From contig CAYPGT010000005.1 of assembly GCA_964410425.1 (NCBI GenBank), positions 13,656 through 60,703 of the forward strand: 47,048 bases of DNA, in the 5' to 3' direction. The notes under the pieces were generated by a model. The model did no database searches. It was not told where the DNA came from and was given only the letters and a program-made list of their open reading frames with translations. This stretch comes from an uncultured Gammaproteobacteria bacterium (GTDB taxonomy: Bacteria; Cyanobacteriota; Vampirovibrionia; LMEP-6097). Position numbers and translations under genes: made by a program. This document shows positions 2,144 through 47,048 of the stretch, piece after piece (within the stretch, counting starts at the first letter, position 1; each line of letters opens with the position of its first letter).

Positions 2144-3976
2144 ATGCCCCCACAGAAAGAAACATCAACTGGAGCTAAATCTCTATTAAAAGAACTAAGA
2201 CGCCAAGGCGTTAAGAGGTTCTTTGGTTATCCGGGTGGAGTTTTGCTTGGGCTTTATGATGAGCTTTATCACGAAGAAGAATTAATGCATATACTTGTGC
2301 GTCATGAGCAGGGTGGTTGTCATGCTGCTGAAGGTTATGCTCGAGTATCTGGAAGACCAGGGGTGGTCTTGGCTACTAGTGGTCCGGGTGCTACTAATTT
2401 AGTAACAGGTATTGCTGATGCTTATATGGACTCTACTCCTATTGTCTGTCTTACAGGACAAGTGCCAACTTTTGGAATTGGAACTGACTTTTTCCAAGAA
2501 GCAGATATCACTGGGATTACTTATCCTATTGTGAAACATAGTTACCTCGTGCGTAAGCCAGAAGATTTGGCTCGCTGTGTTGCTAATGCTTTCCATATTT
2601 GCTCTACTGGTCGTCCAGGACCGGTTCTTATAGATATGCCTAAGGATGTATTAAATGGTCAGTATGAAGTAACTAATGCTAATAGAATTGATGATAATTA
2701 TAAGCCTGATATTAAAGGTTATAAACCCGTGCTTAATGGCAATCCTAAGCAGATTGCTAATGCTGCTAAACGTATCTTGAAAGCCCGTCGCCCAGTGATT
2801 TATGCAGGTGGTGGTGTTATTAGTTCTGGTGCTTCTGCATTATTACGTGAGCTCGTGCAGACCTGTAATATTCCAGTGACTACTACACTACAGGGTAAAG
2901 GTGCTATGCCGCATAAACATCCTCTATTCTTAGGCATGTTAGGTATGCATGGAACAGCCTATGCTAATTACTCTATTTATAATTGTGATCTATTAATTGC
3001 GATTGGAGTTCGCTTTGATGACAGGGTTACAGGTAAGATCGAGACATTTGCACCCGATGCAGATGTGATTCATATTGATATAGATCCAGCTGAAGTTAGT
3101 AAGAATCGTAAAATGCGTGAGATGATTGATATCCCAATCGTGGGTGATGCAAAGAATGTTCTTAAAGAATTGATTCAACAAATAAATAAGCAGAAACCTG
3201 ACATCGAAGAATGGCATAAAAAAGTAAAAGAATGGAAGGATGAGTATCCATTAGATCACGATCCGATTGCAGAAGATTTAATTAGTCCGCAGCATATTCT
3301 CAAAACTATCAAGAAGCTTGCTGGTGACAAGGTTGTATACGCTACAGATGTTGGACAGCATCAAATGTGGGCAGCACAGCATGCTGAGATTGATCATCCA
3401 CGTCAATGGCTTACTAGTGGCGGTGCTGGAACTATGGGTTTTGGTTTGCCAGCAGCGATGGGTGCGGCGGCAGCGTTAGAAGATTCTAAGGGAACTAAGA
3501 ACGATAGATCAGATGAAATAGTAGTTAATATTTCTGGTGATGGTAGTTTCCAGATGTGTGAGCAGGAGTTAGGAACGCTTAAGGCTTATAAGCTTAAAGT
3601 TATTAATTGTATTTTTAATAATCAAAACCTAGGCATGGTACGTCAATGGCAAGATCTCTTCTATGATAAAAATTATTCTCATGTAGATTTGAAACATGGT
3701 AGTCCTGACTTCGTGAAGCTTGCTCAAGCTTATGGTCTTAATGGACATAAACCAGAGACCAGAGCTGATGTAGAGACTGTACTTAAGGCTGCTTTAGCTG
3801 ATGGTGAAGCTACAGTGATAGACTTCCCAATGGCTTATGAGATGAATGTTTGGCCAATAGTGCCTCCTGGTGCGTCTAATATGGATATGATGGGCATAGA
3901 TAGTTGCACACTTACTAGTAAGACTAGAGAAAGTATTGATAGACCCGTAAACGACTATGGCTGGGAGCAAGTCTAG
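2144..3976 (+). CDS. ilvB: Acetolactate synthase large (catalytic) subunit
   Basis: FGYPGG, RHEQG, TSGPGATN, GRPGPV, DVGQHQMW, GTMGFGLPAAMGA, TPP-binding GDGSFQM, GMVRQWQ. Confidence 0.95.
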   Translation: MPPQKETSTGAKSLLKELRRQGVKRFFGYPGGVLLGLYDELYHEEELMHILVRHEQGGCHAAEGYARVSGRPGVVLATSGPGATNLVTGIADAYMDSTPIVCLTGQVPTFGIGTDFFQEADITGITYPIVKHSYLVRKPEDLARCVANAFHICSTGRPGPVLIDMPKDVLNGQYEVTNANRIDDNYKPDIKGYKPVLNGNPKQIANAAKRILKARRPVIYAGGGVISSGASALLRELVQTCNIPVTTTLQGKGAMPHKHPLFLGMLGMHGTAYANYSIYNCDLLIAIGVRFDDRVTGKIETFAPDADVIHIDIDPAEVSKNRKMREMIDIPIVGDAKNVLKELIQQINKQKPDIEEWHKKVKEWKDEYPLDHDPIAEDLISPQHILKTIKKLAGDKVVYATDVGQHQMWAAQHAEIDHPRQWLTSGGAGTMGFGLPAAMGAAAALEDSKGTKNDRSDEIVVNISGDGSFQMCEQELGTLKAYKLKVINCIFNNQNLGMVRQWQDLFYDKNYSHVDLKHGSPDFVKLAQAYGLNGHKPETRADVETVLKAALADGEATVIDFPMAYEMNVWPIVPPGASNMDMMGIDSCTLTSKTRESIDRPVNDYGWEQV

Positions 3977-13581: not shown

Positions 13582-14136
13582 ATGATTTTGCTTTATCTAC
13601 TCTGCTTACTACTCAGTTCTTGTCACCATAAAGAGCCTAAAGTTTATAGATTATCCAAGTCACTTGATGGTGATTCTATGTTTGTTACTGATTATAATTG
13701 TCGTAAGGCCTGTGCCGAAACTGAGCTTAGATTACTTGGTATGGACGCTCCAGAGTATAGCCAAGACCCTTGGGGGAAACGTGCTAGAGAGTTCTTAGTC
13801 TCTCAGATCCACGGTGACACTAAATTATATGTAGAAACTACTTCACCTGTTCATGATAAATATGGACGGACGCTTGCGTTTCTTTATTATGAAACTAATA
13901 ATGAGAGGAAGTTTTTGAATTATGAAATGTTGAAGAATGGATACGCTCAGCTCTTCATTCTTTCTAAGAATTTTAAGCATGCGACTAAATTGAAAGACGC
14001 AGAAGCATATGCTAGAAGCCGTAAATTACATATTTGGCAAGAAACTGGTGGCTTAACTATGAGCCCATACAAGTATAGAAAGATGAAGAAAAAAGCTCTT
14101 AAGAAAGCTCAGAAAGCTGTTAATCATCCTGTATAA
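13582..14136 (+). CDS. Thermonuclease (SNase-like) family lipoprotein
   Basis: Lipobox LLSSC; DGDS, RLLGMDAPE, DKYGRTLAF, G(Y)A and AE..AR..KLHIW motifs. Confidence 0.88.
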   Translation: MILLYLLCLLLSSCHHKEPKVYRLSKSLDGDSMFVTDYNCRKACAETELRLLGMDAPEYSQDPWGKRAREFLVSQIHGDTKLYVETTSPVHDKYGRTLAFLYYETNNERKFLNYEMLKNGYAQLFILSKNFKHATKLKDAEAYARSRKLHIWQETGGLTMSPYKYRKMKKKALKKAQKAVNHPV

Positions 14137-40117: not shown

Positions 40118-41410
40118 ATGTCTGATATTTTAAAACGTGATGCTGAATACCTTTCTCCTGCTTTAGGCAGAGCTTTTGATCTAGTAGCTGTTCGAGGTGA
40201 AGGTTCGTATTTATATAGTGATGCAGGTCAAAAATACCTAGATCTTACTGCAGGTATTGCTGTTAACCAATTAGGGCATGCTCATCCAGAAATAGTACAA
40301 GCTATCTCTGAGCAAGCAGCTAAATGTATTCATACCAGCTGTGTAGTACATTACCCCGCTAATATTGATCTAGCTGAGAAGCTTGCTGAGATTATGCCTG
40401 GTGACATTAATAATACTTTCTTCTCTAATAGCGGAGCAGAGGGCATCGATGGTTCTATCAAACTAGCGCGTAAGCTCAGACCTGGCAGAGCTAATCTTGT
40501 AGTCTTCAAGGGTGGCTTTCACGGTAGAACTTTAGCTGGCACTTCTCTCACCAGTTCCAAATCCTCTTATAGACGCTATTACGAGCCTCTACTTTCTGGC
40601 ATACATTACTTAGATTTCCCGAATATTTACGATGCTAAGACTGAGAAGGATAGAAACTTTGTGGTTGAGCATAGTATCAGCTGCATGAAAAAATATTTCG
40701 ACCGAGTAATACATCCTGAAACAGTGGCAGCCATGATAGTTGAGCCTGTACAAGGTGAAGGTGGTTATATACCTGCAGCTGGACTTCATGGTGGCAGTAA
40801 TTTCTTACAGTTTTTACGCGACTTCTGCGATGAGCATGGCATCATATTAATATTTGATGAAGTACAGTCAGGCATGGGACGTACTGGTAAGTGGTTTGCA
40901 TCACAATGGTATGACGTAGTACCTGATATCCAAGTTATGGCTAAAGGACTCTCTGGTGGAGTGCCTTTGGGAGCTTTCGCTAGTAATAAGGAAATGATGT
41001 ACGAGATGGCTCCAGGCTCTCATGGCAGTACTTTTGGTGGTAATCCTATCGCTTGTAGAGCTGCGCTGAAACTTATAGAAATCATTGAAAGAGATAAAGT
41101 CATGGACAATGTTCTAGCTCGCTCAGAACAAATATTTAAGTTTTTTGAAGATAGATATCCTAAGTCAGACACACGTAAAGCTTCAGGTGAATTCAATGAC
41201 AAGATTAAAGTCAGAGGTTTAGGTTTAATGGTAGGTCTAGTATTCCCAGATTCTAAGATCGTTGACAAGATTAAGAAACAAGCCTACGAAAAGAATGTTC
41301 TACTATTGGGTTGTGGAACCTACGGCAATATTATTCGCTTAGCTCCAGATCTCATTATTAGCGAAAGCGATCTAGCGAAAGGGCTTGAAGTTATTGCTGA
41401 AGCAATATAG
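40118..41410 (+). CDS. Class III PLP-dependent aminotransferase (GabT/ArgD-like)
   Basis: YLDLTAGIAV..LGH, NSGAE, FHGRT, EPVQGEGG, DEVQSGMGRTG, AKGL, HGSTFGGNP. Confidence 0.92.
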   Translation: MSDILKRDAEYLSPALGRAFDLVAVRGEGSYLYSDAGQKYLDLTAGIAVNQLGHAHPEIVQAISEQAAKCIHTSCVVHYPANIDLAEKLAEIMPGDINNTFFSNSGAEGIDGSIKLARKLRPGRANLVVFKGGFHGRTLAGTSLTSSKSSYRRYYEPLLSGIHYLDFPNIYDAKTEKDRNFVVEHSISCMKKYFDRVIHPETVAAMIVEPVQGEGGYIPAAGLHGGSNFLQFLRDFCDEHGIILIFDEVQSGMGRTGKWFASQWYDVVPDIQVMAKGLSGGVPLGAFASNKEMMYEMAPGSHGSTFGGNPIACRAALKLIEIIERDKVMDNVLARSEQIFKFFEDRYPKSDTRKASGEFNDKIKVRGLGLMVGLVFPDSKIVDKIKKQAYEKNVLLLGCGTYGNIIRLAPDLIISESDLAKGLEVIAEAI

Positions 41411-41459
41411 CCTGTATGTATACTTCTACATAAAATCCCATAAGTTATGATATTAAATT

Positions 41460-41655
41460 ATGGGGGGAATTACTATTAGAATTTGGCAAATCACTATTTG
41501 CATTAGCAAATATGGTGTTTACACTAGTATTTTTGAAATCATTTTGGGATTATAACGATACAAGGGGCTTAATTATTGGTATAGTTGTATGGATTAGCTC
41601 GTATGCAATTGGATCAACGTGTATATGTTTATCAAATAGGGAGTTAAAGAAATGA
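41460..41655 (+). pseudogene. Small two-TM membrane protein (cassette gene A, copy 1), frameshifted in a G6 tract
   Basis: Removing one G from 41462-41467 gives MGELLLEFGKSLFALANMVFTLVFLKSFWDYND...ELKK (64 aa), an ungapped match of 27/64 to ORF 45760-45957; TATGAT lies 8 nt before the ATG. Confidence 0.7.
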
Positions 41656-41810
41656 CAGATTTTCAAATTGGAATTATCATTGCAGGAGCAGGAATCTTTT
41701 TTGGTTCCATATTTATTCTAAGCATTGCATTTATTATTGATAGAAAGTTAAATGAACACGCAACTAAAAGACAAACTAGCGGAACTTGCAGATATGCAGA
41801 TTATTGTTGA
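41652..41810 (+). CDS. Small single-TM peptide (cassette gene B, copy 1)
   Basis: MTDFQIGIIIAGAGIFFGSIFILSIAFIIDRKLNEHATK...(52 aa); ATGA overlap with gene A; runs across the ALDH start. Confidence 0.6.
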   Translation: MTDFQIGIIIAGAGIFFGSIFILSIAFIIDRKLNEHATKRQTSGTCRYADYC

Positions 41811-43263
41811 TGGCAAGATCATCAACCGCAATCCTGCACGTATCTCTGAGATAGTCTCGGAACACCGCATTAACACGGAAGAAGAGCTAGATGCCATGCT
41901 ACGTAAGTCAGCTCTGGCGTTTGAGTCATGGTCACAAGTACCAGCTCCTAAACGTGCTGAATATTTATTTAAAGCTCGTAACATCTATGCAGCGCGTAAG
42001 GAAGAACTTGCTTTAACATTACATAGAGAGAACGGCAAGCCTCTTGAAGAAGCTCGTGGAGAGATTCAAGAGATAGTTGATGTTTTTGATTTCTTTATAG
42101 GAGAAGGTAGACGTATCTATGGCATGACTGGTCAATCAGAGATGGCTAATAAATCTATCATCACTATCAGACAGCCTATCGGACCTGCAGCATTTATCAC
42201 TGCATGGAATTTTCCTGCAGCAGTGCCGTCGTGGAAAGCTGCTCCAGCATTGATAGCTGGTAATACTTTTATTCTTAAACCCTCAGAGCTAGCTCCGCTC
42301 TCTGGTAAATTATTCGTAGATATTCTTAACGAAGCGGGCTTGCCTAGTGGAGTAGCGCAGTTAGCTTTTGGTGCGGGTGACGTTGGGGAATACTTAGTAT
42401 CTAGCCCTTACACCAAGATAGTCAGTGTCACGGGTTCAGTAGCAGTAGGTCGTCAAGTAGCGACCATGGCAGCAGATAAATTCAAGAAATGTGCTCTAGA
42501 ATTGGGCGGTAAGAATAGCACTATAGTTCTAGCTGACGCTAATTTAGACCTGGCAGAGGAAGGTATACTCTGGGGTGCCTATGGCACTGGTGGACAGAGA
42601 TGTACTAGTACTAGTAGATTAATTATCGACAAGACTGTTAGCAATGAATTAGTAACTAGACTTAAGAACAAAGCTGCTAAATTTTATGACAAAACTAAGC
42701 ATCAAGCAGCATCTAACTATTCACCGATCATTAGCTTAAGACAACTTAAACGTATTCACCGAATGGTAGAAGAAGCTATAGCTGAAGGTGCCGAACTAAT
42801 CTGCGGTGGTGAAGTTCTAGATGATGGATCACATTCAGGTTACTATTACGCTCCGACTATTCTTAAAGCGAAGCATGGGATTAAGATCACTAAAGAAGAG
42901 GTCTTTGGACCAGTACTCTCCGTGATAGAAATAGAGCCTCAATCTAAATCTAGAGCTGCAGAAGACGTACTGAATGATGCTCTCATCATCGCCAATGATG
43001 TTGAATATGGATTATCGAATGCAATCTATACTATGAATATTAATCTAGGCATGAAAGCCGTTCACAAGCTAGAATCTGGGCTAGTCTATCTTAATGCACC
43101 AACTATTGGTGCTGAATGCGGCGGTGCTAGTTTATTTGGTGGTTGGAAACATACGGGTAATGGTTCTAGAGAGTCAGGTGTCTCAGCACTAGACAGTTAC
43201 ACACAGTACAAAACTATTTCTATAGATTACTCAGGAAAGTTACAGAGAGCCCAGATAGATTAG
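41752..43263 (+). CDS. Aldehyde dehydrogenase family protein
   Basis: ITAWNFP, LKPSE, TGSVAVG, LELGGKN, GQRCTS, EEVFGPVL, FGGWKHTGNG. Confidence 0.95.
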   Translation: MNTQLKDKLAELADMQIIVDGKIINRNPARISEIVSEHRINTEEELDAMLRKSALAFESWSQVPAPKRAEYLFKARNIYAARKEELALTLHRENGKPLEEARGEIQEIVDVFDFFIGEGRRIYGMTGQSEMANKSIITIRQPIGPAAFITAWNFPAAVPSWKAAPALIAGNTFILKPSELAPLSGKLFVDILNEAGLPSGVAQLAFGAGDVGEYLVSSPYTKIVSVTGSVAVGRQVATMAADKFKKCALELGGKNSTIVLADANLDLAEEGILWGAYGTGGQRCTSTSRLIIDKTVSNELVTRLKNKAAKFYDKTKHQAASNYSPIISLRQLKRIHRMVEEAIAEGAELICGGEVLDDGSHSGYYYAPTILKAKHGIKITKEEVFGPVLSVIEIEPQSKSRAAEDVLNDALIIANDVEYGLSNAIYTMNINLGMKAVHKLESGLVYLNAPTIGAECGGASLFGGWKHTGNGSRESGVSALDSYTQYKTISIDYSGKLQRAQID

Positions 43264-43294
43264 GCGAAGTACCATCACAAGTAATTAACTACTT

Positions 43295-44041
43295 TTAAGC
43301 AGTTAGGTCAACCTTATGAGAAACAGCCTTCCTATCCGATCTTTGTGATAATACAGTAAGTATTCCATCTAAATCTTTTTTGATCTCCTTAAAATCACTA
43401 ACAACACCAAGAAAATCTAAATTAGGGAATTTAATTGGATTAAATTTAACAGATTTAGTAATCCAATCTTGTGAACTATGTTTATCCACTAATTTATTTA
43501 ACTCAGCACCAGTAGCATCACCAGGCAATTTACCAAACTGACGTTTAATAGCCTCTTCTTGATGCTCACGATCACTCACTAAACCAGAAATTGACGTAAA
43601 ACCTGGATACAAAGCAGCCCACTGTTGAAGCTCAGATTTAGTCATTGACGATGCTTCAGAGCGTAAAGAATCAGCTATCATATCCGCCATACTAGCCTGA
43701 TATTCTGGAGTAATCTCTGGCTCCCCATTTGCATTAAGAGGAGCTGTAGCTTCTAAAATACTTTGCATTGCAGCAGTTGAGCTAACAGAAAGTAATAGTT
43801 CTTGCCTAATAAGATCTCGTTTAAGTTTTGCTTGCTCTTGATCAAAAGCATCCTTCTCTTGGTAAAATTCTTCTAAAAGTTTAAGCGTTAATCTCCTTAC
43901 AGATTCAGGATCTTTCAACTCACCCTTTGCCGCTAGTTGTTGAACACGATCTTTAACTGATAGAAAGAATCTATTAGAATCTTCCCGACTAGTATCATTT
44001 ACGCTCGTACTCAAAGCACGATCTATATGCATATAATCCAT
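43295..44041 (-). CDS. Hypothetical protein
   Basis: 248-aa ORF; GGTGAG upstream; ends HKVDLTA. Confidence 0.7.
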   Translation of the reverse strand: MDYMHIDRALSTSVNDTSREDSNRFFLSVKDRVQQLAAKGELKDPESVRRLTLKLLEEFYQEKDAFDQEQAKLKRDLIRQELLLSVSSTAAMQSILEATAPLNANGEPEITPEYQASMADMIADSLRSEASSMTKSELQQWAALYPGFTSISGLVSDREHQEEAIKRQFGKLPGDATGAELNKLVDKHSSQDWITKSVKFNPIKFPNLDFLGVVSDFKEIKKDLDGILTVLSQRSDRKAVSHKVDLTA

Positions 44042-44179
44042 TTCTCACCGTCCCTGGATTTGACTCGATAGTCTGAAACCCTCTTATCCCTTAATAAACA
44101 TACAAATTCACTTTCTTGATATTATTGACAAGCGGAAGATTAAATTAGCTTAATTTATACAGCATGCTAAAATCTCATT

Positions 44180-45586
44180 GTGAGTAAAAGCTCTAAATCT
44201 AAAAAACTATGGGGCTCTAGGTTTTCTGATAACCCAGCTGAAATACTGGAAAAATTCAACGCCAGTATCAGTTTTGACCATAAATTATATAGACATGATA
44301 TTCAAGCTAGCATAGCTCATGCTCAAATGTTATCCCAGCAAAATATTATTAGCAATAAAGAATATAAAACTATCGAAAAAGCCCTCAGACAAATAGAAGA
44401 AGAGATATCTCTTAACCCAGAAGTCTGGGCTCAAGAGAGAATTAAGGAAGAAGATATTCATTTAGCAATTGAATCAAGATTAACTTCGCTCATCGGCGAT
44501 ATTGGCAAAAAATTACATACTGCTCGTAGTCGCAATGACCAAGTAATCACAGATTTAAGATTATGGCTAAGAGATGAATTAAATGTTCTTCAAAGCCTAG
44601 TCAAAAAATTACGTCAACAATTAATTACAAGAGCTGAACAAGATCTAGATTGCATTATGCCAGGCTATACGCACATGCAGCAAGCACAACCTATCTCTGT
44701 GGGGCATTTTTGGTTAGCACATGAAGCTAGATTCTCTAGAGATGCTGAGCGACTAAGCGATTCGCTAAAACGCATTAATATTAATCCACTTGGTTCAGGA
44801 GCACTTGCAGGATCGACCTTCCCAATTGACAGAGATCTGACGACTAAGAGTCTTGGTTTCATTCGTCCCTCAGAGAATAGCCTAGATGCAGTCTCTGACA
44901 GAGATTTTGTCTTAGAGTATGAGTTTAATTTATCGATGATCATGTTACATCTCTCTCAATTAGCAGAAGAAATGATCATCTGGAATAGTCAGGAGTTTGC
45001 TTACATAGAGATATCAGATAGCTTCGCAACTGGTTCTAGTATGATGCCACAGAAGAAGAACCCTGATATCCCCGAGCTACTTAGAGGCAAGACTGGAAGA
45101 GTCATAGGTGTACTCAATGCTCTAATGATCACAGTGAAAGGTTTGCCACTTGCCTATAACAAAGATCTGCAAGAAGACAAAGAGATGTTATTTATGGCAA
45201 ATGAAACTACTCAAGACTGCCTAGCTATTACAGTTGAATTCTTGAATAATATTAAACTTAATCAAGAAAGAATGTATCAGGCTTGTGCTCATAGTTACAC
45301 CGCTGCTACAGATGCTGCTGAGTATTTGGTAAAGAAAGGTATGCCGTTTAGAGATGCTTACAAATGCATTGGTGAAATAATCAAGCATGCGATAGCTTCA
45401 GAAAAATATCTCACAGAGCTAACTCTAAAAGAATGGCAAAAATTCTCTAAGTTATTTGAATCTGATATCACCAAGAATTTAGCGCCAGAAGCCTGTGTTG
45501 ACGCCAGAGATATCATAGGCGGCACTAGTAGAAAACAAGTACGTAAGGCTATTAAATTTTCGCAGAAAAGGTTAGGGGTCAAATGA
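44180..45586 (+). CDS. argH: Argininosuccinate lyase
   Basis: KLWGSRF, EDIH, LHTARSRNDQ, MPGYTH, TGSSMMPQKKNPD, AYNKDLQEDKE. Confidence 0.97.
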   Translation: MSKSSKSKKLWGSRFSDNPAEILEKFNASISFDHKLYRHDIQASIAHAQMLSQQNIISNKEYKTIEKALRQIEEEISLNPEVWAQERIKEEDIHLAIESRLTSLIGDIGKKLHTARSRNDQVITDLRLWLRDELNVLQSLVKKLRQQLITRAEQDLDCIMPGYTHMQQAQPISVGHFWLAHEARFSRDAERLSDSLKRININPLGSGALAGSTFPIDRDLTTKSLGFIRPSENSLDAVSDRDFVLEYEFNLSMIMLHLSQLAEEMIIWNSQEFAYIEISDSFATGSSMMPQKKNPDIPELLRGKTGRVIGVLNALMITVKGLPLAYNKDLQEDKEMLFMANETTQDCLAITVEFLNNIKLNQERMYQACAHSYTAATDAAEYLVKKGMPFRDAYKCIGEIIKHAIASEKYLTELTLKEWQKFSKLFESDITKNLAPEACVDARDIIGGTSRKQVRKAIKFSQKRLGVK

Positions 45587-45691
45587 CCCCCTTCATTTCT
45601 TTAGAATATACATACTTAATAACGACAATATGTAAAACGTCATTGAATTATAAAGTTTTTTAGATAAAATCACAGAGGTTTTTTGACCCCT
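45574..45691. repeat. Hairpin and long-range inverted repeat at the argH end
   Basis: GGGGTC-AAAT-GACCCC at 45575-45590; AGGGGTCAAA (45574-45583) is inverted as TTTGACCCCT (45682-45691). Confidence 0.55.
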
Positions 45692-45759
45692 TTCGTTTTG
45701 AAGTCAAATCAATCATGATCATAATTTCAATTTAGAAGAAAACTTAATAGGGGAAATAT

Positions 45760-45957
45760 ATGAAAATAGCTCTACAAGAAACTGGAAAATCAATACAAGC
45801 TTTTGCCAATGTGGTTACAACCATAATATTTCTAAAACACTTTTGGGACTATCATGATTTAAGAAGTATCACAATGGCTTTAGTCGCGTGGTTTGGTTTA
45901 TACTTTATAGCGATCGGCTTGTTTGTTCTTAGCGAAAACAAAAAGAAGGAGAAATAA
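45760..45957 (+). CDS. Small two-TM membrane protein (cassette gene A, copy 2)
   Basis: 65 aa with two hydrophobic helices; homologous to 41460-41655; AGGGG upstream. Confidence 0.75.
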   Translation: MKIALQETGKSIQAFANVVTTIIFLKHFWDYHDLRSITMALVAWFGLYFIAIGLFVLSENKKKEK

Positions 45958-45958
45958 A

Positions 45959-46078
45959 ATGGACCCTGTAGATATGGCATTATTGGGATTTGGAGTATTA
46001 GGATTTATTGGTGGTTCAATAATTTTTTTCGTTATATTACCTAAGGTCAAAGAAGCAAATGCAAAACAGACCACGTAG
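45959..46078 (+). CDS. Small single-TM peptide (cassette gene B, copy 2)
   Basis: MDPVDMALLGFGVLGFIGGSIIFFVILPKVKEANAKQTT (39 aa); SD AAGGAG; overlaps the hemB start. Confidence 0.65.
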   Translation: MDPVDMALLGFGVLGFIGGSIIFFVILPKVKEANAKQTT

Positions 46079-47048
46079 ATTAAGATTAAACCAGCATATT
46101 AGGAACCTAGTTCAAGAGCATTCTATTACAGCTCACGATCTAATTTATCCAGTGTTCATTAAAGAAGGCGAAAACTCACAAGAAGCTATCTCATCAATGC
46201 CAGGAATTTACAGATGGGGTACGGAGAGTATACTAAGAGAGCTCGAAGAGGCTCAAGGATTAGGAATCAGTGCCATAGCTCTATTCCCGGTAATAGATGA
46301 TCAGTTTAAAACATTAAACGCAGAAGAAAGTTATAACCCCGAGGGCTTGACCCAGAGAGCCATAAGAAGAATTAAGGAAGAATTCCCAGGCTTATTGTTA
46401 ATAACAGACGTAGCACTTGACCCATATACTATTCACGGTCATGATGGCATTCTAGAAGACGGTAAGATAGTCAATGACAAGACTGTAGAAATACTAACTC
46501 TCATGTCACTCGCTCAAGCAGAAGCAGGATCTGATATAGTTGCTCCTTCAGATATGATGGACGGCAGAATCTCAGCTATAAGACATAAGCTTGATAAACA
46601 CGGATATGATGACACTCTTATCATGGCTTATACAGCCAAATACGCTTCTAGTCTCTACGCGCCTTTCAGAGAAGCTCTTAGCTCACTTGGTGCTAAAAAA
46701 TCAAACACGCTAACACTCGAAAAAGAACTTTCTATACCTCAAGACAAAAAAACTTATCAAATGAACATAGCTAACTCTAAAGAAGCATTGAAAGAATTAG
46801 AGTTAGATTTAGCTGAAGGCGCAGATATCGTCATGGTCAAACCTGCTGGCTGGTACTTAGATATAGTGCAACAATTTAAGTCCAAATCTAATGTCCCAAT
46901 AGCAGCATATCAAGTCAGTGGAGAATACTCGATGATACATGCTGCTGCTAAAGCTGGATATATAGACTTAGATAAAGCTATTTATGAATCATTGATAAGT
47001 ATTAAACGAGCTGGTGCTGATCTGATACTTAGCTATTTTGCGAAGGAT
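46059..47048 (+). CDS. hemB: Porphobilinogen synthase (ALA dehydratase), truncated by the window end
   Basis: Not in the ORF track. Own translation gives MQNRPRRLR, TDVALDPYTIHGHDG, APSDMMDGRI, YTAKYAS, DKKTYQM, MVKPA, AYQVSGEY, LSYFAKD. Confidence 0.95.
   Translation, partial: MQNRPRRLRLNQHIRNLVQEHSITAHDLIYPVFIKEGENSQEAISSMPGIYRWGTESILRELEEAQGLGISAIALFPVIDDQFKTLNAEESYNPEGLTQRAIRRIKEEFPGLLLITDVALDPYTIHGHDGILEDGKIVNDKTVEILTLMSLAQAEAGSDIVAPSDMMDGRISAIRHKLDKHGYDDTLIMAYTAKYASSLYAPFREALSSLGAKKSNTLTLEKELSIPQDKKTYQMNIANSKEALKELELDLAEGADIVMVKPAGWYLDIVQQFKSKSNVPIAAYQVSGEYSMIHAAAKAGYIDLDKAIYESLISIKRAGADLILSYFAKD

Follow-up and report, generated by a model that had tools for sequence, protein, structure and literature searches.

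Very small membrane subunits such as CydX, KdpF and AcrZ are encoded inside operons and are translationally coupled. They have only one or two helices, their genes show stop/start overlaps and internal ribosome-binding sites, and annotation often misses them. In this study, a pair of genes with the same traits, gene A and gene B, was analysed in a stretch of 47,048 nucleotides (the window; positions 13,656 to 60,703 of contig CAYPGT010000005.1), which belongs to a 78%-complete genome (G000) from a freshwater metagenome. CydX, KdpF and AcrZ are encoded with the membrane complex that they serve, whereas A and B lie amid soluble metabolic enzymes of diverse pathways with no partner complex nearby. 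The results showed that A and B form a conserved two-gene unit. We lean towards the view that this unit is an accessory two-subunit membrane module, which is a passenger in host operons and is gained and lost by small insertions and deletions.

The window holds two copies of the pair. Copy 1 (A' and B') is described further below. Copy 2, whose gene A was the founding member of the A-family searches and alignments, has the following layout (nt, nucleotides; aa, amino acids; ORF, open reading frame):

44180-45586, + strand: argH (argininosuccinate lyase), an ORF and the 5' neighbour of copy 2, named by sequence reading and synteny and not by a Pfam scan
45760-45957, + strand: gene A, 65 aa, ATG start, two-helix hairpin, with AGGGGA 7-12 nt upstream
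45959-46078, + strand: gene B, 39 aa, one helix and a basic tail
46059-47048, + strand, running off the window: hemB (porphobilinogen synthase, ALAD; Pfam PF00490, E 1e-132; NCBIfam NF006762)

The ATG of gene B is one base past the stop of gene A, the Shine-Dalgarno sequence of gene B (AAGGAG) is inside the last codons of gene A, and the last 20 nt of gene B overlap hemB, which starts at the ATG at 46059. This is the architecture that had been described by an earlier reading of the DNA made without database searches (the sequence-only reading). The gap from argH to A is about 170 nt, with hairpins that resemble terminators and hexamers that resemble promoters, and A is served by a ribosome-binding site of its own.

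A scan of metagenomes with a distant A subfamily gave 32 loci with a GC content of 22-54%, and a one-helix peptide was coupled 3' of A in 31 of them. Of this tally, 25 loci were scored by script (a one-helix frame of 27-45 aa within a few bases of the A stop), and five out of six were scored when re-read by eye; L063, an A fragment, was the sole locus counted without B, and L054, which prints the same sequences as L053, was not re-read. An earlier metagenome scan with another A alignment (A1) had given no match. The A1 search of genome contigs gave, beyond the record of the genome G011 itself, only a chance FLKHFW match in a 274-aa Paludibacteraceae membrane protein. B also accompanied A in all four melainabacterial genomes that have A. 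The sequence-only reading had proposed that copies be counted: many junctions were indeed found elsewhere, and the genome of the window has only two A-family copies at its 78% completeness.

The junctions of the pair were similar from locus to locus. In a table of 24 loci, the last A codons (…KSEE, …KKEK) bear the Shine-Dalgarno sequence of B, either GAGGAG or AAGGAG. The start of A is commonly on or just past the stop of the preceding gene (TAG directly followed by ATG, or ATGA), and the end of the metagenome B, …CAT GAA TAA, spans the ATG AAT AAA of the next gene, for fcl and rmlB alike. Stop/start overlap or abutment together with a ribosome-binding site in the preceding gene marks translationally coupled genes, and A and B show both. 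The A-B junction layout is the standard termination-reinitiation arrangement of coupled operon genes. Its overlaps and internal ribosome-binding sites thus allow ribosomes to move from the upstream gene through A and B into the downstream gene without polarity. It had been suggested that the pair is a translational-coupling module; the coupling is real and is the way in which the pair is expressed, and that coupling is its purpose was not borne out. As a separate observation, L053 (positions 3170-3400), which is the only GC-rich locus (54%), has a truncated second copy of the start of B after B itself (MNAIEIMASWMG…).

The neighbours of the metagenome pairs were assigned by Pfam scans of 29 neighbours at 17 loci, and further loci were read from their junction sequences:

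gmd, A-B, fcl: L048, L052, L056 and L059 (Pfam)
rmlD, A-B, rmlB: L049, L039 and L064, and L046 with rmlD upstream only (Pfam); L041, L042, L047 and L050 (junction sequences)
manC, A-B, phosphomannomutase (PMM): L040 (Pfam)
wecB, A-B, UDP-sugar dehydrogenase: L051 (Pfam); L045 is like L051 (junction sequences)
sugar transferase (opposite strand), A-B, ugd: L055 (Pfam)
A-B, then a KdsC-like gene: L044 (junction sequences)
single loci: beside ParE/Uma2 (L058), a response regulator (L037), a flavodoxin (L038) and HAMP/CheR genes (L053)

Taken together, the Pfam junctions and the junction sequences therefore place at least 17 of the 32 loci inside nucleotide-sugar operons. In the family of the window, the junctions are argH-hemB, aminotransferase-aldehyde dehydrogenase (ALDH) and the upstream side of an HD-domain gene. 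The presence of the pair at many unrelated operon junctions is a true and unusual regularity.

The nucleotide-sugar loci raise the explanation that the pair is a pathway-linked accessory, for example one that tethers metabolic enzymes, nucleotide-sugar enzymes among them, or the mRNA from which they are being translated, to the membrane. In these operons the pair is between two enzymes of one pathway, and its expression is strictly co-translational with the neighbours. However, argH-hemB, aminotransferase-ALDH, the HD-domain gene and the aroG-ispH junction of a similar pair (the DUF6722-type pair described below) share no common pathway, and close relatives lack the pair at the same junctions. 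Moreover, the metagenome contexts are not independent samples, because all 32 loci came from one search with one A subfamily. We consider the pathway-linked explanation unlikely.

The A family was clearly recognisable at the protein level. A and A' were identical at 26 of 60 positions (43%; BLAST, E 4e-17), and their shared motif E..GKS....AN......FLK.FWD was verified. B and B' gave no BLAST alignment. The G..G..G pattern that had been ascribed to B was present in B of G000 and of G001 (a species of the same genus) but not family-wide. When a profile of metagenome B peptides only was used, the window B ranked first among 20,602 small ORFs of its own genome (E 0.012). The family is rare: when 1.84 billion representative proteins were searched with a profile built from six A sequences, 32 clusters passed E ≤ 1e-3 and 8 of them passed E ≤ 1e-10, each of 51-89 aa. 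A word-indexed protein search found just three close proteins. In an alignment of 37 rows, N17 and Y48 were invariant, and E7 and K10 were nearly so. As had been proposed, the family is unannotated: searches with the models of Pfam, NCBIfam, PHROG and PADLOC gave nothing for A or B, save a weak PADLOC match of the A relative at L062. The labels 'ABC-type ... permease subunit' on P0010 and P0038 (64-67 aa) are automatic names of the source and were not relied on. AlphaFold2, run with the family alignment, predicted gene A as a helical hairpin with helices at 2-31 and 34-60 (mean predicted local distance difference test score, pLDDT, 85.5).

The ratio of nonsynonymous to synonymous substitutions (dN/dS, Nei-Gojobori) of A was 0.05-0.16 in seven pairs, with 0.09 for copy 2 against G001. 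The ratio of B was 0.10-0.26 in six of seven pairs and 0.56 in the seventh, with 0.105 for B of copy 2, and the comparison genes argH and hemB gave 0.04-0.05. Judged by these substitution patterns, the A and B frames are translated proteins under purifying selection. We also weighed whether the small frames might not be genes at all and might instead be spacers that are not translated, or frames that are open by chance. Small hydrophobic ORFs abound in this AT-rich genome (38% GC), and when pairs of a two-helix and a one-helix ORF were screened for in general, 10 were found in the genome and 11 in its reversed sequence; this screen is therefore unusable for counting cassettes. In addition, A of copy 1 has no usable start. 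However, with a dN/dS well below 1 in both genes, profile-level conservation over distant bacteria, and a conserved gene order and internal ribosome-binding site, it is very improbable that the frames are not genes.

Copy 1 lies between an aminotransferase and an ALDH, as had been read from the sequence and as Pfam agrees:

40118-41410, + strand: class-III aminotransferase, 5' neighbour of copy 1 (Pfam PF00202, E 3e-105)
41460-41655, + strand: gene A', with an ATG at 41460 and the conserved two-helix frame at 41464-41655, one base out of phase (apparent +1 frameshift)
41652-41810, + strand: peptide B', 52 aa, one helix, its ATG overlapping the A' stop (ATGA)
41752-43263, + strand: ALDH, 3' neighbour of copy 1 (Pfam PF00171, E 8e-134)

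The B' frame extends 59 nt beyond the ALDH ATG at 41752. The 64-aa gene A that had been claimed here is not an open frame. The conserved A' frame (41464-41655) contains the shared motif, yet no ATG, GTG or TTG occurs in it before 41512. Owing to a run of six G at 41462-41467, the ATG at 41460 leads into another frame, an ORF of 31 aa; the sequence-only reading had apparently read five. The six-G run was also present in independent Logan contigs of the source sample, which showed 0 differences from the window between 41300 and 42129. In run X6, a relative has five G and is in frame, reading ...TTTTATGGGGGAAT (also given as ...ATGGGGGAAT), and P0006 in the representative library is an intact 64-aa homologue that differs from the window A' frame at 1 of 60 positions. 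Therefore, A' is a real gene that is frameshifted in the source population, and the frameshift would mean either that A' was recently inactivated or that the G run serves as an on/off switch.

In the relatives, the aminotransferase-ALDH junction was occupied in different ways. G001 and G002, which is likewise of the same genus, carry a B'-type peptide only (positional orthologues of B', 45-47 aa), G009, from another genus, carries a different 51-aa one-helix peptide, and G005 and G011 have no small gene there. The aminotransferase-B' spacer of G001 (30 nt) retains AATTACTATT, the 10 nt that directly follow the G run of A', and its 3' end is A'-like; this 10-mer was found in about 0.1% of random 250-nt genome windows. 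Because the spacer keeps both the 10-mer and the A'-like end, these remnants suggest that A' was lost by deletion in G001. The ALDH N-terminus also differs between these genomes: about 15-20 extra residues (MNTQLKDKLAELADM…; window 41752-41795) are found only where a peptide gene precedes (G000, G001, G002 and G009), and in G005 and G011 the ALDH begins near MNKIIN or MPKIIN, straight after the aminotransferase.

Among the 30 genomes of the family, five matched A, and G010 was excluded after inspection because its match (E 0.005) is antisense within a der/engA-like gene. Among the 401 genomes of the class, seven matched at E ≤ 0.001, and full-length small ORFs were found in four (G000, G001, G009 and G011); the three weak matches, in frames of 435, 48 and 300 aa, were not counted as carriers. 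Orthologues of argH adjoin hemB in G001, G002, G005, G008, G009 and G013. The pair is kept in place at this junction in G001 (A 80% identical) and G009 (36%), whereas G002, G005, G008 and G013 are without it, and there argH abuts or overlaps hemB. A comparison with empty sites had been proposed, and it showed that occupancy indeed differs between congeneric species. The difference between G000/G001 and G002 is about 478 nt, comprising a hairpin repeat, A and most of B, and lies between two (C)AAATG. The empty allele of the G002 type is also found in the source sample (depth approximately 33 versus approximately 83). In the tree of argH and hemB, the genus was supported at 100/100, the deeper forks were weak (82-84 ultrafast bootstrap), and the occupied G009 grouped with the empty G013, so that at least three gain or loss events are required at argH-hemB. 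In the A tree, the melainabacterial copies formed one clade (93/82) in which copy 1 branched first; the two window copies are therefore old paralogues. In total, the occupancy of three junctions varies among three species of one genus, and a fourth junction, ispH-typA, is occupied in both G001 and G002.

It had been noted that both B frames continue beyond the next ATG, reading AAT-G there in a common phase. This is correct, and it had been taken as a docking property of the cassette. However, the same overlap was found at cassette-free sites, where the end of argH, …NAK (G002) or …NAKK (G005) plus its stop, covers the hemB ATG in the phase that the …ANAK of B also has. Thus, the overlap belongs to the hemB initiation region and is inherited by whichever frame precedes it. 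Two overlaps in one of two possible phases are unremarkable.

The DNA just upstream of copy 2 belongs to a dispersed repeat, and the genome also has genes that resemble transposases:

45575-45695: one copy of the two-hairpin repeat, hairpins GGGGTCAAATGACCCC and GAGGTTTTTTGACCCC (…CCTTAACYTCYAGRGGTTTTTTGACCCCCTTGA … CAGRGGTTTTTTGACCCCTTTC) about 100 nt apart
G000 contigs C9, C28, C34, C37, C42/C70, C59 and C87/C111: other sites of the hairpin repeat
G000 C11:18735-19073, C43:7142-7468, C80:3899-4225 and C7:2205-2540: matches to Y1 (IS200-like) transposases, in ORFs of 196-319 aa

The first hairpin at 45575-45695 spans the argH stop codon. The repeat is GC-rich and terminator-like and gave 37 strand-wise motif hits at about 14 genome sites, several of which are at contig ends; public contigs break at the repeat. 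An Rfam search over 41000-47048, the hairpin repeat included, gave no match. In G009 and G011 only part of the hairpin motif is retained upstream of A, and neither copy 1 nor the DUF6722-type cassette has the motif. Like the REP/REPIN-RAYT systems, the repeat consists of short GC-rich palindromes that are dispersed, intergenic and often paired, in a genome with Y1-like genes, which may be RAYT-like and able to act on it. Unlike in those systems, about 100 nt separate the two hairpins, the intervening DNA is conserved only in part, and the repeat is not part of every cassette.

We believed that these data are best described by an accessory membrane module that travels as a passenger. A would form the two-helix hairpin and B one helix with a basic tail, and both would assemble in the membrane. 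The module would have no fixed promoter of its own and would be expressed from whatever operon hosts it, in a role that is probably independent of the flanking enzymes. Its copies would arise via rare duplication or transfer and would be lost via small deletions at short homologies, presumably with no dedicated transposition machinery. The apparent docking on start codons would then be the normal stop/start overlap of coupled genes, which at hemB would predate the cassette.

Several observations weigh against this reading. B' has no demonstrable homology to B, since with a B profile lacking the B' rows it ranked only 20th of 20,602 small ORFs (E 4.4); with no BLAST alignment either, the kinship of B' and B therefore rests on position and shape only. 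No result here bears out a binding of A to B, and the prediction of the A+B complex gave no answer either way (score 0.02 against a mark of 0.32, with controls not run). In G001, G002 and G009 the peptide at aminotransferase-ALDH stands without any A, and B-type peptides are therefore able to exist alone. The nucleotide-sugar contexts could mean a pathway-linked role instead of independence of context. The three or more events at argH-hemB, on a weakly forked tree, also fit repeated site-specific insertion. The hairpin repeat immediately precedes copy 2 and three further small membrane pairs, and there are four Y1-transposase-like genes in the genome, so that a mobilising mechanism is possible. 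Finally, two metagenome loci adjoin genes of insertion-sequence (IS) type, namely an IS200-like Y1 transposase (L062) and an IS30-like integrase (L034).

The last of these points bear on the proposal of the sequence-only reading that the pair is a mobile micro-cassette with active insertion at the starts of genes. Such a cassette would depend on mobilisation in trans, and a Y1 transposase (RAYT/IS200-like) that acts on the adjacent hairpin repeat would be one candidate for this. The many types of occupied junction, a presence that varies within one genus at three junctions, and the patchy distribution in the class (4 true carriers in 401 genomes) would fit such a cassette. On the other hand, G001 and G009 have copy 2 in synteny, and its divergence there is like that of old orthologues; the window copies are deep paralogues (43% identical), and no near-identical copies were found at different sites. 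The cassette consists of A and B only, with no recombinase of its own. As had been reported, no transposase or clear target duplication accompanies it; its ends have no inverted repeats, and the difference from G002 is bounded only by the 5-6 nt (C)AAATG microhomology. Inspection by eye showed no attC-like ends; a search aimed at attC was not made. The hairpin motif is absent or partial at other copies, and the argH tail of G002 resembles a deletion product or the ancestral state and not an excision footprint. Active spread to gene starts is therefore not what the copies in place indicate, and we regard a mobile cassette as improbable.

The pair had also been proposed as a membrane toxin/antitoxin or anti-phage system. 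In this explanation, the pair would be a toxin with its antidote or an abortive-infection pair, in which a pore peptide of the Hok/TisB kind (B) is neutralised by a membrane-embedded A, and loss of the host operon would thereby become difficult. B does resemble type I toxins (Hok, TisB and Fst) and holin/antiholin pairs, as it is a single helix of 27-52 aa with a charged tail and is paired with a small membrane protein; the pair is accessory and patchy, and one of the 17 scanned loci (L058) is beside ParE and Uma2 genes. In contrast to those systems, no antisense RNA or lysis genes were seen, although the antisense strand was not specially searched, and A-B is found in housekeeping operons. 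PADLOC was silent for eight of the nine A and B proteins scanned and gave only a weak match (E 0.011) of the L062 A relative to the DRT model PDLC03819, and neither phage and plasmid records (tblastn) nor viral contigs gave a match to A-B. B-type peptides occur without A in three genomes, and in the window A' is frameshifted while B' is open, which would be odd if A neutralises B; G002 shows a clean loss. These searches provide no evidence for the proposed role, and we consider it quite unlikely.

The closest relative in build is DUF6722, an uncharacterised family of small membrane proteins that is not mentioned in the literature searched. The sequence-only reading had named it as a lead: the same two-gene build does occur in the same genus, and the Pfam model does not match A. 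Indeed, the model (PF20482; gathering 27 bits) matched none of 37 members of the A family at E ≤ 0.01, neither A nor A' at E ≤ 1, and none of 14 other members at E ≤ 10; a scan of the own genome at E ≤ 10 found C13:35949-36080 only, which is not A. DUF6722 is annotated on 13% and 37% of the members of clusters that neighbour A in the Atlas, and hhalign of the A alignment against five DUF6722-type proteins gave a probability of 37.7% (E 3.4e-4) over 54 colinear columns from residue 1, which is suggestive only. In the class, PF20482 found one copy above the cut-off in each of G001, G002 and G023, and a second just below it in G002 and G023. These genes encode two-helix proteins of 63-68 aa, each followed by an overlapping one-helix, basic-tailed peptide of 34-43 aa:

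G002: aroG, pair, ispH, pair, then typA convergent
G001: aroG and ispH adjacent (9 nt), then a pair after ispH
G023: ispH, pair
G000 C13:35919-36244 (L032): DAHP synthase (aroG), pair, ispH; 68 aa (17 bits, below the cut-off) and a 40-43 aa peptide

Thus aroG-ispH holds a DUF6722-type pair in G000 and G002 and is empty in G001. DUF6722 proteins and A agree in size and in having two helices, the first of which contains a polar residue and ends in a basic one. In architecture and neighbourhood they also agree: a coupled one-helix peptide is on the 3' side, the pair is wedged between housekeeping genes, and its presence varies between species. The conserved residues differ, with E..GK....AN / FLK.FW in A and E......lDiaK..F..L..G in DUF6722. 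At the DNA level, the A'/B' joint (AGGGAGTTAAAGAAATGACAGA) resembles the joint of the DUF6722-like pair on C13 (AGGGAGTGGATAAAATGACAGA).

A third family without a Pfam model (L076-L079) was found at four sites of the same genome, each with a two-helix protein of 81-84 aa and an overlapping one-helix peptide of 37-52 aa:

G000 C34:17373-17757, - strand
G000 C37:1983-2338, + strand
G000 C55:3400-3787, + strand
G000 C59:6967-7342, + strand

The pairs on C34, C37 and C59 are 40-90 nt downstream of a hairpin repeat and just upstream of ordinary genes. We tentatively raise the idea, which we ourselves doubt, that the A-B, DUF6722-type and third-family pairs are an undescribed class of promoterless 'operon hitchhikers'. 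They would slot into the coupling chains of housekeeping genes and move between junctions, perhaps via the hairpin repeat and Y1 transposases, and each would have its own selectable membrane or addiction function.

No description of the A-B pair was found in the titles and abstract openings of the literature searched. Small membrane proteins are widely missed by annotation, and A-B is a conserved two-gene unit without a family model. Its carriers are highly diverse and include freshwater Melainabacteria and low-GC metagenome contigs (22-39% GC), and the Atlas clusters nearest to these contigs are mostly from Aquificota and Campylobacterota. The pair offers a handle on DUF6722, which has the same build. 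Both occupied and empty junctions are found among sister species and even within a single sample, so that the pair is also a clean natural experiment on how tiny genes enter and leave operons without breaking the coupling. In addition, it gives a caution that an apparent insertion at a start codon can be an inherited stop/start overlap. If membrane targeting of operon products or self-propagation were true, A-B would be a new kind of operon component.

Two further features were seen in the window between ALDH and argH. An ORF of 248 aa at 43295-44041 (- strand) is without a Pfam or NCBIfam match. In the co-occurring G002-like strain, 699 other bases are present in place of 43262-44085.

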